A stretch of DNA of 12,739 nt from a virus (Duplodnaviria; Heunggongvirae; Uroviricota; Caudoviricetes). Both the position numbers and the translations under genes were made by a program. Positions 2,206 through 10,703 of the stretch are shown piece by piece. Within the stretch, counting starts at the first letter, position 1, and every line of letters begins with the position of its first letter. A model generated the notes under the pieces. That model was not told where the DNA came from. It saw only the letters and a list, made by a program, of their open reading frames with translations, and ran no database searches. Where the stretch lies: positions 1 to 12,739 of IMG/VR virus record IMGVR_UViG_3300032038_000051; one strand, written 5' to 3'.

Positions 2206-2386
2206 GGCGGCGGGGATACGCGCCGTGAAGACGATGGCGCAGACCGCGGTCGCGCTCATCGGGACGAACGCCATCGGCATCACCGAGGTCAACTGGATAG
2301 GCGTGGCCTCGGGCGCCGCGCTGGCGGGGGTGGTGTCGATGCTCACGAGCGTCGCCGGCCTGCCGGAGGTGGGCGATGGCGAATAG
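2183..2386 (+). CDS. Holin (phage r1t holin-like)
   Basis: 67 aa, WLRAAGIRAVKTMAQTAVALIG...VNWIGVASGAALAGVVSMLTSVAGLPEV, two hydrophobic segments, overlaps the endolysin start. Confidence 0.9.
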   Translation: MLSREWLRAAGIRAVKTMAQTAVALIGTNAIGITEVNWIGVASGAALAGVVSMLTSVAGLPEVGDGE

Positions 2387-3977
2387 GAGGCTCGTCCTGG
2401 ACGTCTCGCACTGCGACAGGGGCATCGACCTCGCCAGGTGGCGCGACAGGCACGGCGTGTGGGGCGTCATCGTCAAGTGCGGCGGGTACGAGGTCCTGGA
2501 GGAGGGCGGCTACCCCGTCCAGTACAGGCACAGGGACTACGACACGCACTACGCCAACGCCAAGGCGGCGGGCCTGCACGTCGGCGTCTACTACTACTCG
2601 ATTGCCACGGACGTCGCCGCCGCGAGGCGCAACGCCGACCACTGCGCGTCGCTCCTCAAGGGCCGCGACCTCGACCTGCCCGTCTACCTCGACGTCGAGG
2701 ACAAGGGGCAGCTGAGGATCGGGAGGCGCGCCCTCACCGACGTCGTCGCGGCGTTCTGCGACCGCATGCGCGAGCTCGGCCACCTCGCGGGCGTCTACAC
2801 CTACCGCTCGATGTTCCACGGCTACATGCGCCCCACCGAGCTGCTGCGCTACCCGCTGTGGCTCGCGGAGTACAGCGACCGCTGCCGCACCGAGTACCCG
2901 CACGGCATGTGGCAGTTCGGCTGCATGAGGCTGTCAGACGGCGACGTGAGCTGGGACGACGTGGCGGGGTACGTCGACGCCAACTGGCTCTACACGGACT
3001 ACACGACCCAGAACAAGGGGGCTAACATGACCAAGAGGGAGGCGGTCCTCGCCAAGGTGAGGTCGCAGCTGGGGGTCAGGTACTACTCGATGCACGAGGG
3101 GCCGAGGGGGTCCGCCGTCGAGGGCTGGGGGTGCGCCATGCTGTGCGCGTGGTGCTACGACCAGGTCCTCGGCACGGCCTACTACGGCTCCTGCTACAAC
3201 TTCGCGGGCGACGCGCTCGGCCAGTCCGTCAACCACGGCGGGGGCCAGTGGCGCTTCGTGGACGACCCGCTGCCCGGCGACCTCGTGATCTACATAGCCG
3301 AGGGCTACAACGGCCTCGACTACGACGACTACGGGCACATCGCCATGTACGTCGGCGACGGCAAGGTCATCGGCGCGTGGGGCGTCGGCAAGCCGGGGCA
3401 GGCGGGGTACAAGCCGCTGCTGGGCGTCGCCGAGACCACGATAGCCTACCAGTCGCTCGGCAACGGCTGGCGCTTCCTGCGCAACACCCGCATCGACGAG
3501 CCCGACCCAGAGCCGGAGCCTGAGCCCAAGCCCGAGCCCAAGCCAAAGCAGAAGGTCCCCAAGGCCGCGAAGGGCGGGGTGTACCGCCTCTACGACGGCT
3601 CCACGGGCGACCACTTCTTCACCACCGGCAGGGGGGAGGCCCAGGCGGCGGCGGACGCGACGTACACATACGAGCAGGTCGCGTGGACGGCGCCCGACAA
3701 GGGCGACGCCGTGTACCGGCTCTACGATCCCAAGACGGGCGAGCACATCTACACGAGGAACGCCGTCGAGCGCGGCTCCCTGAAGGCGCACAAGTGGCGC
3801 GACGAGGGCGTGGCGTTCAGGTCCGGCGGCAAGGTGCCCGTGTACCGGCTGTTCCACGAGAGGGGCGACGGCCCGAGCGTGGGAAAGCACATCTTCACCA
3901 AGGACAAGGCGGAGCGCTCGGCGCTCCTCAAGTCCGGCTGGAAGGACGAGGGAGTGGCCTTCTACGCCACCAAGTAG
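2376..3977 (+). CDS. Modular endolysin: GH25 muramidase + NlpC/P60-like peptidase + Pro-Glu/Lys linker + DUF5648-like repeats
   Basis: LDVSH...GVIVKC...GVYYYS...PVYLDVED...LWLAEY...MWQF...VDAN (GH25); GWGCAMLC...GHIAMYVGDGKVIGA (Cys/His peptidase); EPDPEPEPEPKPEPKP linker; three VYRL(Y/F)...H(F/I)(F/Y)T repeats with W.DEGVAF. Confidence 0.92.
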   Translation: MANRRLVLDVSHCDRGIDLARWRDRHGVWGVIVKCGGYEVLEEGGYPVQYRHRDYDTHYANAKAAGLHVGVYYYSIATDVAAARRNADHCASLLKGRDLDLPVYLDVEDKGQLRIGRRALTDVVAAFCDRMRELGHLAGVYTYRSMFHGYMRPTELLRYPLWLAEYSDRCRTEYPHGMWQFGCMRLSDGDVSWDDVAGYVDANWLYTDYTTQNKGANMTKREAVLAKVRSQLGVRYYSMHEGPRGSAVEGWGCAMLCAWCYDQVLGTAYYGSCYNFAGDALGQSVNHGGGQWRFVDDPLPGDLVIYIAEGYNGLDYDDYGHIAMYVGDGKVIGAWGVGKPGQAGYKPLLGVAETTIAYQSLGNGWRFLRNTRIDEPDPEPEPEPKPEPKPKQKVPKAAKGGVYRLYDGSTGDHFFTTGRGEAQAAADATYTYEQVAWTAPDKGDAVYRLYDPKTGEHIYTRNAVERGSLKAHKWRDEGVAFRSGGKVPVYRLFHERGDGPSVGKHIFTKDKAERSALLKSGWKDEGVAFYATK

Positions 3978-5877: not shown

Positions 5878-6092
5878 GTGACGTCCTCTCCACGATGCCC
5901 GCCAGAGCTACTGAGAGCGATTCTGACGGGACTTCTCGCCACCTCCGGTGCAGTTGGCCGTCCTGCGTTGGCGATGGCCGCAGAACGCCCGAGGGCCGCT
6001 TTCGGCGAAATCCGACGAAAGGGTTTTTTCTTGTCTTGGTCTTCTTTCCTTTGTTTTCTTCGCTTTGTCTTCTTCTCTTTTTATTCTTAGTT

Positions 6093-6222
6093 GCGGGTTT
6101 TCCGCTGCGGAAAACCCGCTGCGGAAAACCCGCTGCGGAAAACCCGCTGCGGAAAACCCGCTGCGGAAAACCCGCTGCGGAAAACCCGCTGCGGAAAACC
6201 CGCTGCGGAAAACCCGCTGCGG
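6093..6222. repeat. 14-bp tandem repeat (CCCGCTGCGGAAAA) x ~8.7, preceded by one inverted unit
   Basis: Units start at 6101 (C>T in first base), 6115, 6129, 6143, 6157, 6171, 6185, 6199, partial 6213-6222. 6093-6105 GCGGGTTTTCCGC is the reverse complement of 6107-6119. Confidence 0.95.
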
Positions 6223-8145: not shown

Positions 8146-8217
8146 GCCCCGTTGGCCCAATGGACAAGGCGCTCGCCTCCTAAGCGAGAGCTCCGGGTTC
8201 GACTCCCGGACGGGGCA
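8146..8217 (+). tRNA. tRNA-Arg(CCU), CCA not fully encoded (ACCT)
   Basis: Acceptor GCCCCGT/ACGGGGC, D loop with TGG, anticodon stem CTCGC/GCGAG with loop CT-CCT-AA (anticodon 8179-8181), T arm CCGGG-TTCGACT-CCCGG. Confidence 0.93.
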
Positions 8218-8278
8218 CCTATGTATACACGGAGCGTCATGCGAGGCATCAGCGCGTCGCGCAAGCCGCTCCGTCATC

Positions 8279-8381
8279 TACCGTGTACCGCACGGGAAGT
8301 CACGCCTGTGGAGTGCTCTCAAGACCCTTCGGGGCAATGCACGACGAAGCAGGAACTCACGCCAGTCGTGGGTGGAGGTCC
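8279..8381 (+). ncRNA. Stand-alone TnpB omegaRNA (reRNA)-like scaffold 1
   Basis: TACCGTG-TACCG-CACGGGAA, ACGCCTGTGGAG (8302-8313), AAGAC, cTTCGg hairpin, GAAGCAGGAA (8346-8355), terminal stem CTCACG/CGTGGG, end GGAGGTCC. Same blocks and order as 10234-10364 and as IS605-group tnpB 3' ends (translated tail ACG...KQE). No tnpB ORF directly upstream. Confidence 0.8.
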
Positions 8382-8403
8382 GCGTATTCGCAGGTAGGGA
8401 AGT

Positions 8404-9036
8404 CTTTCACCCGCGCAAGCGTGGGAAGGTCCCATGTGCAAGCCTTTTTCCGTCACCTCTAGGCCTTTCACCCGCGCAAGCGTGGGAAGGTCCTACGTCG
8501 AAATCATCCACCGTGGCGCGCTGGACTTTCGCCCGCACGAGCGTGGGAAGGTCCGCTATAGCGAGGACGAGCTAAGCCCGGTCGAGCTTTCACCCGCGCA
8601 AGCGTGGGAAGGTCCGTGAGCCGAAAGCACGTCAACGACCTTCTAAGCTTTCACCCGCGCAAGCGTGGGAAGGTCTTAGCAATGGGCAACAACGCGAAAG
8701 AAAAGGCCCTTTCACCCGCGCAAGCGTGGGAAGGTCCACGTTAACGCGGAAGAAGGCCCGAGCCGCGTTCTTTCACCCGCGCAAGCGTGGGAAGGTCCGC
8801 TATAGCGAGGACGAGCTAAGCCCGGTCGAGCTTTCGCCCGCGCGAGCGTGGGAAGGTCCACGATCCACGGACTCGCGATGCTCGCCTTGGTCTTTCGCCC
8901 GCGTGAGTGAGGGAAGGTCCGCATGCCGTCGGCCAGGTCGATGAGGTCGAGCTTTCACCAGCGTGGGCGTGGGAAGGTCCGGGACAGCGTGAAGCGCGAT
9001 CCAAAGGCTTTCGCCCGCACGAGCGTGGGAAGGTCC
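8404..9036 (+). CRISPR. CRISPR array 1: 11 repeats (29 nt, CTTTCACCCGCGCAAGCGTGGGAAGGTCC), 10 spacers, type I-E-like repeat
   Basis: Repeats start at 8404, 8465, 8526, 8587, 8648, 8709, 8770, 8831, 8892, 8952, 9008. Spacers are 32 nt x8, then 31 and 27. 61-nt period. Degeneracy increases rightwards, so the leader is on the left. Confidence 0.97.
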
Positions 9037-9083
9037 TGGGCGTAGAGCGTGTCTACGACGACGACAACTAAAGAAGCGATAAT

Positions 9084-10214
9084 ATGATTAGTAGAGCATA
9101 TAAGTTCAGAATTTACCCGAACAAGACGCAGGCCGAACTCATCGAGGAGACGTTCAGGGCGTGCCGATACGTGTGGAACATCGCACTCGAATGCAAGAAG
9201 GTCGAATGGGATGACAGAGGAAAGAACGTTTCGGCGTACGAGCTGATGAAGCTCCTCACCGGCGTGAAGTCCGTATGCACATGGCTGTACGACGTGCCTA
9301 ACTCGGCCATGCAGCAGTCCATACGAGACCTCGACGTCGCGTTCAAGAACTTCTTCAGGCGAGTCAAGAACGGCGAGAAGCCCGGCTATCCGAAGTTCAA
9401 GAAGGCGGGATGCAGCTTCCAGAGCTACAGGACTCCTGCCGCCGGGAACGCGGTACGCGTCATCGACGACCGTCACGTCAAATTGCCGAAGCTCGGCAAG
9501 GTCAAGTGCCGCATCACGCAGACGCCGCAAGGACATCTGCTGAGCGCCACCGTCAGCAGGACTCCATCTGGAAAGTACTTCTGTTCGATAACGTGCGAGA
9601 ACGTGCCGGAGCCGTACATGGAAGACGGCACCCTCGACGTCATGGGCGTCCGTCTCGGCGTACGCGACCTCATCACGTGCTCGGACGGCGTGAGGGTCGA
9701 GAACCCGAGGGCGCTGTCGAAGTCCGAGAGGAAGCTCAGGCGCGAGCAGCGCAGGCTGAGCCGCAAAAAGAGGGGCTCGGCGAATTACAGGAAGCAGAAG
9801 CAGAAGGTCGCGCTGGTCCACGAGAGGGTCGCCAACCAGAGGAGAGACAACATCCACAAGGCGACCACGAGGATCGTCCGCGACAGCAAGGCGATCGCCG
9901 TGTCGTCCAACGACGTGGCTGGGATGATGCGCTCGAAGAAGTTCTCCAAGGCAGTCGCGGACGCGAGCATGTCGGAGGTCAAGCGGCAGCTGGCGTACAA
10001 GGCGCAGTGGTACGGGCGCGACCTCGTCGAGGTTGACGCGAGCACGGCGTTCGGCAGCACGTGCGGGCGATGCGGCGCGCAAGCGGAGCTCAAGGTCGGC
10101 ACGACTCGCTGGACGTGCCCGAAGTGCGGCGCCCACCACGACTACGCGCTGAACGCGGCAAGGAACATAGCGGCCATCGGCATGGCCGAGATCAGAAGGG
10201 GCGGGCGACCGTAA
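9084..10214 (+). CDS. tnpB: TnpB-family protein, predicted nuclease-dead (TldR-like)
   Basis: AYKFRIYPN HTH start, GYPKFK, LPKLG, ZnF CGRC/CPKC, NAARNI. RuvC-I GVRLG (D>R190), RuvC-II AVSSND (E>S274), RuvC-III HDYALN (D>A355). Confidence 0.92.
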   Translation: MISRAYKFRIYPNKTQAELIEETFRACRYVWNIALECKKVEWDDRGKNVSAYELMKLLTGVKSVCTWLYDVPNSAMQQSIRDLDVAFKNFFRRVKNGEKPGYPKFKKAGCSFQSYRTPAAGNAVRVIDDRHVKLPKLGKVKCRITQTPQGHLLSATVSRTPSGKYFCSITCENVPEPYMEDGTLDVMGVRLGVRDLITCSDGVRVENPRALSKSERKLRREQRRLSRKKRGSANYRKQKQKVALVHERVANQRRDNIHKATTRIVRDSKAIAVSSNDVAGMMRSKKFSKAVADASMSEVKRQLAYKAQWYGRDLVEVDASTAFGSTCGRCGAQAELKVGTTRWTCPKCGAHHDYALNAARNIAAIGMAEIRRGGRP

Positions 10215-10233
10215 GGCCGTCCGACGGCAGCGG

Positions 10234-10364
10234 TACCGCGTGTCACGCGGGAACCGGGAGAAATCCGAACGCCTGTGGAGACTGAGTAAGACCGGGCATC
10301 CCCGGCAATGGTCGCAGAAGCAGGAACCCGCATTCGTGGTGGCGAAAGCAAATGGGATTCGTCC
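10234..10364 (+). ncRNA. omegaRNA-like scaffold 2 downstream of tnpB
   Basis: TACCGCG-TGTCA-CGCGGGAA, ACGCCTGTGGAG (10269-10280), TAAGAC, hairpin CCGGG/CCCGG, GAAGCAGGAA (10317-10326), terminal stem CCCGCATT.../AATGGG, end ATTCGTCC. Usual position 3' of tnpB; out-of-frame NACGD and SQKQE tail remnants. Confidence 0.85.
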
Positions 10365-10395
10365 CGAGTCGACGCAAACGCGCAGGCAGCCTAGT

Positions 10396-10703
10396 GTGTC
10401 ACCCCCACGCATGTGGGATGGCCCCTCCGTGACGAATGCGGATCGCTTGTCCGCATGTGTCACCCCCACGCATGTGGGATGGCCCGCGCTAACGGCGGAG
10501 AGCTTGGAGAGATGTCGCCCGTACGCACGCGGGATGACCCGAGCAGATGAGGATTAACCGCGCGTCGCCCATACGTGTGTGGGATGACCCCAAGATCTGG
10601 AGGATTATGAGTCCTCTGTGCTGCGTCTCTCGTACGAGTGTTGGATGACCCGTCGTGAGTGACGAGGAGGAGAGGCGTCGCCTGCACGCATGTGAGATGA
10701 CCC
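10396..10703 (+). CRISPR. CRISPR-like array 2: 6 degenerate 29-nt repeats (GTGTCACCCCCACGCATGTGGGATGGCCC), 5 spacers
   Basis: Repeats at 10396 and 10457 are identical (61-nt period); degenerate copies at 10512, 10562, 10623 and 10675 all keep GTC at positions 3-5 and the GATGRCCC end. Spacers 32, 26, 21, 32, 23 nt. Confidence 0.85.

Follow-up and report, generated by a model that had tools for sequence, protein, structure and literature searches.

The described systems that come closest to the phage locus analyzed here are the TnpB-like nuclease-dead repressors, the transposon-CRISPR intermediates, the effectors Cas12m and Cas12k, and the virus-borne mini-CRISPR arrays and RNA anti-CRISPRs (Racr). 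The locus lies in a stretch of 12,739 nucleotides (nt), called the window below, which is the first 12.7 kb of a 78.6-kb IMG/VR virus record (IMGVR_UViG_3300032038_000051), and it consists of a gene for a nuclease-dead TnpB between two CRISPR arrays (short palindromic repeats, clustered and regularly interspaced), each preceded by an omegaRNA-like scaffold. The TnpB-like nuclease-dead repressors (TldR; Wiegand et al. 2024, bioRxiv 10.1101/2023.11.30.569447) are TnpB homologues with a decayed RuvC domain, no transposase and an adjacent omegaRNA-like guide, with phage-encoded examples, and they act by steric repression. The transposon-CRISPR intermediates (TranC; Jin et al. 2025 Cell, as cited in bioRxiv 10.64898/2026.03.27.714800 and 10.1101/2025.09.28.678669) have a compact TnpB-like effector beside short CRISPR arrays without cas1 or cas2, and a guide believed to be an omegaRNA in two pieces, one like a trans-activating CRISPR RNA (tracr) and one derived from the repeat. 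Some members, among them the ISDra2-like CauTranC9, are phage-encoded, and spacers against phages are described. Cas12m and Cas12k (PMC10691335) are TnpB-derived effectors with a CRISPR array but without adaptation genes, and they bind DNA without cutting it. In virus-borne mini-CRISPR arrays and Racr (PMC10651486), phage repeats mimic those of the host, again without cas genes.

The TldR proteins have one fixed guide against a neighboring host promoter, and no CRISPR arrays have been reported for them, whereas in the window each scaffold leads, as one fused unit, into a leader and a multispacer array, and the protein belongs to a separate clade that is sister to active, array-linked TnpBs. 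Compared with TranC, the effector is nuclease-dead, a single effector is accompanied in this group by two to four cassettes, each with its own scaffold, and the form of the repeats, their period and the leader are those of type I-E, a sign that an array was captured and did not arise by de novo duplication. LaTranC, the only solved TranC, matches no more than the C-terminal 134 residues of the window protein (E value of 7e-21), as against a full-length match to ISDra2 TnpB. Cas12m and Cas12k are much larger and more diverged and have their own repeat types, while the protein described here has 376 amino acids, is close to ISDra2 TnpB and goes with I-E-like arrays and a leader. Finally, Racr are solitary repeat units without functional spacers, in contrast to two arrays, with 11 and 6 repeats, whose spacers vary between relatives and which go with a leader, a conserved upstream scaffold and a dead TnpB of their own. 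An earlier note on this DNA, made from its letters alone, knew of no description of such a layout. For the exact form, fused to type I-E elements and with several cassettes, this agrees with our literature search, which found neither multicassette loci described nor any TnpB, dead or active, whose scaffold is joined to the leader and array of a type I-E system; array-linked TranC and dead type V effectors, in contrast, have been published.

We read the locus, with about an even chance of being right, as a TranC-like system with a split guide, a dead effector and captured type I-E arrays that are refilled by the I-E adaptation proteins of the host.

A nuclease-dead TnpB clade

On the + strand of the window, the order of elements is tRNA-Arg, scaffold 1, the end of a leader, array 1, tnpB, scaffold 2, a leader module and array 2. 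The two scaffolds, the 11- and 6-repeat arrays and the intact dead tnpB, all on this strand, were recovered at or near the places where the earlier note had put them. Its claim that cas and Y1 transposase genes are absent agrees with the whole 78.6-kb record (about 70% complete by the CheckV estimate), in which we found no Cas1, Cas6e, Cas7e or Y1 TnpA. With no Cas1, Cas6e or Cas7e in the record, the locus lacks the linked operon of cas3, Cascade genes, cas1 and cas2 that defines a type I-E system.

The tnpB gene (9084-10214, +) codes for a protein of 376 amino acids (P0001) in which the helix-turn-helix (HTH), the WED/REC region, the RuvC fold and the zinc ribbon are all kept. The Pfam domains HTH_OrfB_IS605, OrfB_IS605 and Cas12f1-like_TNB were detected with E values of 1e-24, 2e-15 and 3e-15, respectively, so the domain set of a TnpB (HTH, RuvC and zinc-ribbon TNB) is complete, and the alignment with ISDra2 TnpB covers residues 3-364 (E value of 2e-72). 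The whole catalytic D-E-D triad of RuvC has been replaced, with D191, E278 and D361 of ISDra2 corresponding to R190, S274 and A355, which bears out the dead RuvC proposed before; the residues for RNA-guided RuvC cleavage are therefore lost in the window protein, while the triad is intact in its sister clade. The residues that read the TTGAT target-adjacent motif (TAM) in ISDra2 TnpB are Y52, S56, K76, F77, Q80, T123 and N124 (PMC10097598). Only Q80 is kept in P0001, where Y52, S56, K76, F77, T123 and N124 are replaced by A, M, N, S, A and G, respectively. Because six of the seven contacts differ, the TAM of P0001 is probably not TTGAT, and TTGAT was dropped as an assumption.

Dead relatives were gathered by two database searches and one profile search, which yielded 11 protein clusters whose three RuvC positions have R, then S, R or G, then A or S. 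Their open reading frames (ORFs) and zinc-finger cysteines are intact, and identity to the window protein goes down to 42% (42-64% across the 11). In a tree of 143 sequences the 11 are monophyletic (support 1.0), and their sister (support 0.93) is a clade of 57 members with an intact D-E-D triad; copies named after Olsenella and Atopobium, which are ordinary insertion sequences (ISs), are placed further out. As the same RuvC substitutions occur in 11 diverged relatives, we take them as a sign of long maintenance and not of recent decay, and the clade shares with TldR the long-term preservation of an intact but nuclease-dead TnpB homologue. Six other TnpB homologues form a group apart (P0149, P0151, P0167, P0220, P0222 and P0265); this group, with T/R/K at the three RuvC sites and longer N termini (408 to 589 amino acids), is a candidate for another dead, TldR-like clade.

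Recurrent scaffold-array cassettes

The scaffolds were identified with a covariance model (R1) trained on 12 active omegaRNAs only. Scaffold 1 (8278-8382, +; 50 bits, E value of 2.9e-11), which also aligns with scaffold 2, is tracr-like and contains the blocks CGCCTGTGGAG, AAGAC and GAAGCAGGAA (8346-8355), followed at 8356-8372 by a hairpin like stem 4 and at 8373-8381 by the tail TGGAGGTCC, a mimic of the array 1 repeat at its 3' end. A match to the Rfam family RAGATH-18 at 8305-8355 is weak and below threshold. Scaffold 2 (10233-10352, +; 59.6 bits, E value of 1.1e-13) starts 19 nt past the tnpB stop codon, the canonical position of an omegaRNA, and has GAAGCAGGAA at 10317-10326, directly followed by the anti-repeat-like CCCGCAT (10327-10333). 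Stems 1 to 3 and the long-range helix are conserved among scaffolds, with the compensatory changes CCTG/CAGG, CTCG/CGAG and CTCC/GGAG; stem 4 and the tail align poorly among cassettes.

Eight dead loci were fetched (the window, L004, L005, L006, L103, L104, L105 and L106), and at least 18 scaffolds were found in them, all on the strand of tnpB, with E values from 1e-17 to 4e-8. Each array in these loci lies directly 3' of a scaffold, and wherever there is enough sequence, two to four cassettes surround the single dead TnpB. An upstream scaffold-array cassette is likewise present in all five active (D-E-D) sister proteins that were placed on contigs (P0004, P0007, P0010, P0017 and P0030), all of them phage-borne, and three of these five loci also have a canonical single-guide omegaRNA downstream. 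Linkage of a TnpB-like effector to a CRISPR array is therefore consistent (eight of eight dead and five of five active loci), and the same architecture is seen in 13 loci. An extra omegaRNA scaffold with a strong score (91 bits) was seen at L088:653-761, some 1.7 kb upstream of the gene for the active P0007 and apart from the cassette scaffold at 2176-2280.

As a control, we examined unrelated general metagenomes, in which none of 63 scaffolds that share the core motif leads into an array, so the pairing of scaffold and array is more than chance. The IS copies in genomes come with tnpA but never with an array, and their scaffolds end in GTCAA; the locus does not look like a mobile IS, since there is no Y1 TnpA in the record and the scaffold continues into a type I-E leader and array without a GTCAA end. 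A strict search for the cassette pattern in IMG/VR gave one match (L116), which was rejected as chance because it has no scaffold, array or TnpB.

Among the checks proposed in the earlier note were a phylogeny and a search for homologous loci; these gave a monophyletic dead clade, an active sister clade and arrays at all 13 loci examined. The note's idea of a TnpB-to-CRISPR intermediate specialized for silencing fares less evenly. A dead, array-linked clade does exist, but the cassettes are shared with active relatives, which means that linkage to arrays came first, nuclease activity was lost later, and silencing is a derived state.

Could the cassettes be functionless, left behind when IS605-type elements inserted beside arrays that the phages already carried? 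The degenerate state of array 2, where repeats are 70-100% alike and spacers shortened, the missing tnpA and the poor conservation of stem 4 and tail would all fit such a relic. It would have to coexist with 11 intact dead ORFs that carry the same substitutions at 42-64% identity, with compensatory changes in the scaffold helices, with one architecture across 13 loci and with a locus that, across several metagenome studies, stays 90-99% conserved despite changing spacers, and we consider it highly improbable.

Type I-E leaders and arrays

Array 1 (8404-9036, +) has 11 I-E-like repeats of 29 nt with a period of 61 and 10 spacers, eight of 32 nt followed by one of 31 and one of 27 nt. Spacers 3 (8555-8586) and 7 (8799-8830) are identical, and their last 7 nt reappear before repeat 10, which suggests internal duplication or recombination inside the array. 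Array 2 (10396-10703, +) has six degenerate I-E-like repeats, of which the 3' tail GATGRCCC is best conserved, and spacers of 32, 26, 21, 32 and 23 nt. The repeats, which are absent from the rest of the phage genome, have the form typical of type I-E (28- to 29-nt hairpins GTGT..CCCC..GGGG-ATG..CC, 32- to 33-nt spacers and a period of 61).

Between scaffold and first repeat, the window has a truncated leader end of 22 nt in cassette 1 (8382-8403, +), with GCAGGT at -14 to -9 and AGT at -3 to -1 relative to repeat 1, and a full leader-proximal module of about 55 nt in cassette 2 (10341-10395, +), with GAAAGC-AAATG from -46, GCAGGC at -14 to -9 and AGT at -3 to -1. Seven type I-E arrays from Coriobacteriia genomes served as the native comparison set. 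Their leaders end in GCNGG(T/A) at -14 to -9 and AG(T/A) at -3 to -1, and five of the seven have an AAA(C/G)(C/T)GA motif with GA at -46. The I-E-like phage cassettes have GC(A/T)GG(T/C) at exactly -14 to -9 in 10 of 10 cases and AGT at -3 to -1 in 9 of 10, and those with a full module have a GAATG motif at -46; the leader of cassette 2 is in register with the native leaders L108, L111, L113 and L115 and with other phage cassettes. An nhmmer profile of the seven native leaders gave weak scores (E values of 0.23 and 1.5; control, 2), yet its two best matches stop exactly at repeat 1. With these repeat-proximal motifs in the same register in native and phage leaders, the stretch from scaffold to first repeat is, judged by its motifs, a type I-E leader, that is, the part required by the I-E integrase.

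The spacers of the arrays turn over among close relatives of the phage. Metagenome contigs with 90-99% identity in tnpB, the scaffolds and the flanks connect across the two arrays, where their spacers (30-38 nt) are other ones. Together with the leader module, this turnover indicates arrays built for the I-E adaptation machine of the host.

A second class of cassettes has repeats of 36-37 nt and of another form, spaced regularly or irregularly, each with its own scaffold. The repeats of L090 end in GGGGAGTGTCCC, which is nearly identical to the canonical omegaRNA end, GGGGAGTGTCAA. Arrays 5' of active TnpBs at L089:2104-2403 and L237:2799-2974 have strongly palindromic repeats of 36-37 nt with a period of 66 (36+30), a geometry unlike that of the I-E-like arrays, and an ATGACCC tail, which the two kinds share.

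The leader motif could also be the target of the dead TnpB and not a signal for spacer uptake. The protein would then be a TldR with a fixed guide in cis, namely the I-E leader, that binds the leaders of host CRISPR arrays, where a TAM lacking in the phage copy would be present, and blocks host array transcription or spacer uptake as an RNA-guided anti-CRISPR, with the phage arrays acting as decoys or taking over Cascade. The expected position of the guide does coincide with the most conserved leader motif, AAAC(C/T)GAATG, which is identical over 10 nt between cassette A of L005 and the native leader L108. TldR guides measure 9-11 nt, and some TldRs are phage-encoded. Judging from IS605 biology, insertion into a leader would yield exactly such a junction, and four of the seven native leaders have a T-rich, TTGAT-like sequence 5' of the motif. 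Yet most cassettes of the first class either lack the canonical tail (AGTGTCAA) and a stable stem 4 or have them in degenerate form, the replacement of six of seven TAM contacts makes TTGAT a doubtful TAM, multispacer arrays with spacer turnover and a scaffold matched to the repeat are left without explanation, and integration signals account equally well for the shared motif. We therefore regard this as improbable.

Use of the spacers and meaning of the locus

Evidence for a link between each scaffold and its own array comes from stem 4. In the ISDra2 omegaRNA, described as a natural single guide RNA that can be split at stem 4, this stem links a tracr-like half to a CRISPR RNA (crRNA)-like half in which the guide is joined by the 3' strand of stem 4 and a strand of the pseudoknot (PMC10097598). 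The position of the stem-4 5' strand, which is taken by the 12 nt after GAAGCAGGAA, was compared in 18 cassettes with the 3' half of the repeats, and the duplex energy was -12.4 kcal/mol with the cognate array as against -9.4 +/- 0.5 kcal/mol with other arrays (z = -6; none of 20,000 permutations reached the observed value). The cognate array won 22 of 26 comparisons within loci. For the next 12 nt of the scaffold, the match is to the repeat's 5' half (z = -4.9), and the other scaffold segments showed no preference for the cognate repeat in the same position-specific test. Duplex energies of whole scaffolds with repeats were significant in two of five cassettes only, with no cognate pattern, and only the position-specific test was informative. 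The match means that stem 4 either copies the hairpin of the repeats in its own array or is a partner to it, as would be expected both from pairing in trans and from concerted evolution.

Under the split-guide reading, each cassette would consist of a tracr-like omegaRNA scaffold and a captured type I-E leader and array that supplies crRNAs. The 3' half of the repeat (the 3' arm of the hairpin and a tail of about 7 nt), matched by the stem-4 region of the scaffold directly upstream, would act as stem 4 and tail of the omegaRNA, directly 5' of the guide, which would explain why there is one scaffold per array. The Cas1-Cas2 of the host I-E system would insert new spacers in trans through the retained leader. 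The dead TnpB, with scaffold and crRNA, would then bind matching DNA without cutting it and block its transcription or replication, with competing phages as the likeliest targets. We infer the binding of array-derived RNAs by the dead TnpB, their processing, the protospacer-adjacent motif (PAM) or TAM and the class of target from this anatomy. The same reading would account for the match of scaffold and repeat, the cassettes that are not I-E-like and the tolerance of short spacers.

Several points weigh against it. The complementarity is modest, with 7-9 base pairs in the best cassettes and about 3-5 in several others, and stem 4 may simply be a repeat-like hairpin in cis whose similarity is owed to gene conversion, with no pairing in trans. 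The canonical omegaRNA tail (AGTGTCAA) that the same protein has in L087 and L088 differs from the tails of the upstream array repeats. Pseudoknot pairing between repeat tail and AAGAC block, inspected by eye, showed no consistent pairs or covariation. The arrays hold all the plain features of type I-E (leader module, 29+32 periodicity and hairpin repeats), so the data do not require their use by TnpB, and a single strong protospacer among 84 spacers allows no PAM to be derived.

That protospacer is the only strong match found for the 84 spacers taken from all loci. A spacer of L006 (L006:151-182) matches the antisense strand of the L004 scaffold (L004:132-163, -) at 30 of 32 positions (E value of 1e-8), which points to conflict between related phages; a crRNA made from it would, by its sequence, also be complementary to the scaffold RNA of the rival. 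A match of spacer 8 to a small gene of its own phage (7013-7044; 24 of 32 positions) was set aside as borderline, since shuffled spacers also reach 24, and no spacer matches its own phage genome beyond that level. Three window spacers, searched exactly or with every sixth base left free, had no match in IMG/VR. Array 1 had 27-nt matches at chance level only among 50,697 phage records and, among 401 Coriobacteriia genomes, weak matches centered on the GC-rich spacer 9 at about chance expectation.

The plain I-E features are what would be expected if the arrays were ordinary virus-borne type I-E arrays, used by the Cas6e, Cascade and Cas3 of the host against competing phages and refilled by its Cas1-Cas2. 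The scaffold and dead TnpB would then be accessories that drive, stabilize or regulate expression of the precursor crRNA and make no use of the spacers. The leader module in register with the seven native Coriobacteriia leaders, the 29-nt hairpin repeats with period 61, the spacer turnover, a phage record without the Cas1, Cas6e and Cas7e that were sought in it, and two candidate protospacers with A-N-C 5' flanks, like a 3-nt I-E PAM, all speak for such a role. It does not explain why all arrays, including those with 36- to 37-nt repeats, have their own conserved scaffold matched to the repeat, nor why an intact dead TnpB has been kept in 11 lineages. All seven native arrays have an ATGATCC handle that is absent from all of the about 20 phage arrays, where both classes have tails of the ATGRCC type, and neither window repeat was found, at up to three mismatches, in 401 Coriobacteriia genomes; a BLAST search of the L104 leader and repeat against 301 genomes gave no match. 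Type I-E itself was seldom met with in the class as sampled (7 of 151 genomes, and 1 of 26 in the family). Many phage spacers are too short for Cascade, as about a fifth of those in the first class are below 32 nt and some gaps between repeats measure 12-15 nt, as against a uniform period of 61-62 in the seven native arrays. On balance, we hold use by the host Cascade to be the main alternative, though only about half as likely as the split-guide reading.

Around the locus, the tRNA-Arg gene (anticodon CCT; 8146-8219, +; identified by ARAGORN, with 61.5 bits to the Rfam tRNA model) lies directly 5' of cassette 1 and is a possible source of its transcription. Further upstream, an ORF of a phage reverse transcriptase family (252-1673, +; phrog_1423, E value of 8e-36) could belong to a diversity-generating retroelement or to another reverse transcriptase system, and an endolysin-like gene (2376-3977, +; phrog_291, E value of 5e-39) has a C-terminal part that matches an uncharacterized phrog. 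A perfect tandem repeat with a 14-nt unit, CCGCTGCGGAAAAC, in 8.6 copies (100% identity) occupies 6102-6222 and is adjoined by a looser 14/28-nt repeat at 6026-6088. Parts of the locus are present in DNA metagenomes of animal guts, mostly bovine, from several studies.

For the origin of CRISPR arrays in type V systems, Altae-Tran et al. (2023; PMC10691335) remarked that a tnpB inserted close to a preexisting array "cannot be ruled out" as a source. The clade described here appears to display this route of array capture directly, in a graded series from the mobile IS to the active array-linked phage TnpB and on to the dead array-linked TnpB. Somewhat more tentatively than the split guide itself, we propose a chimera of class 1 and class 2, in which phage TnpBs, first active and then dead, would have captured I-E leaders and arrays that the host Cas1-Cas2 writes and the TnpB effector reads. 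This bears on how the arrays of Cas12 arose from a single-guide TnpB and on where type V and TranC systems that lack Cas1 and Cas2 obtain their spacers. A protein of 376 amino acids near the well-studied ISDra2 TnpB makes it tractable to ask whether a class 2 effector reads arrays made by a class 1 integrase, what minimal change in the RNA lets a TnpB use crRNAs, and what a phage gains from a form that does not cut. If the reading is true, this would be a living type V-like system born by array capture and not by duplication of the omegaRNA, and its dead branch would be a natural, very compact, multiplexed module comparable to CRISPR interference, which uses its library to silence rival phages, their own cassettes included.

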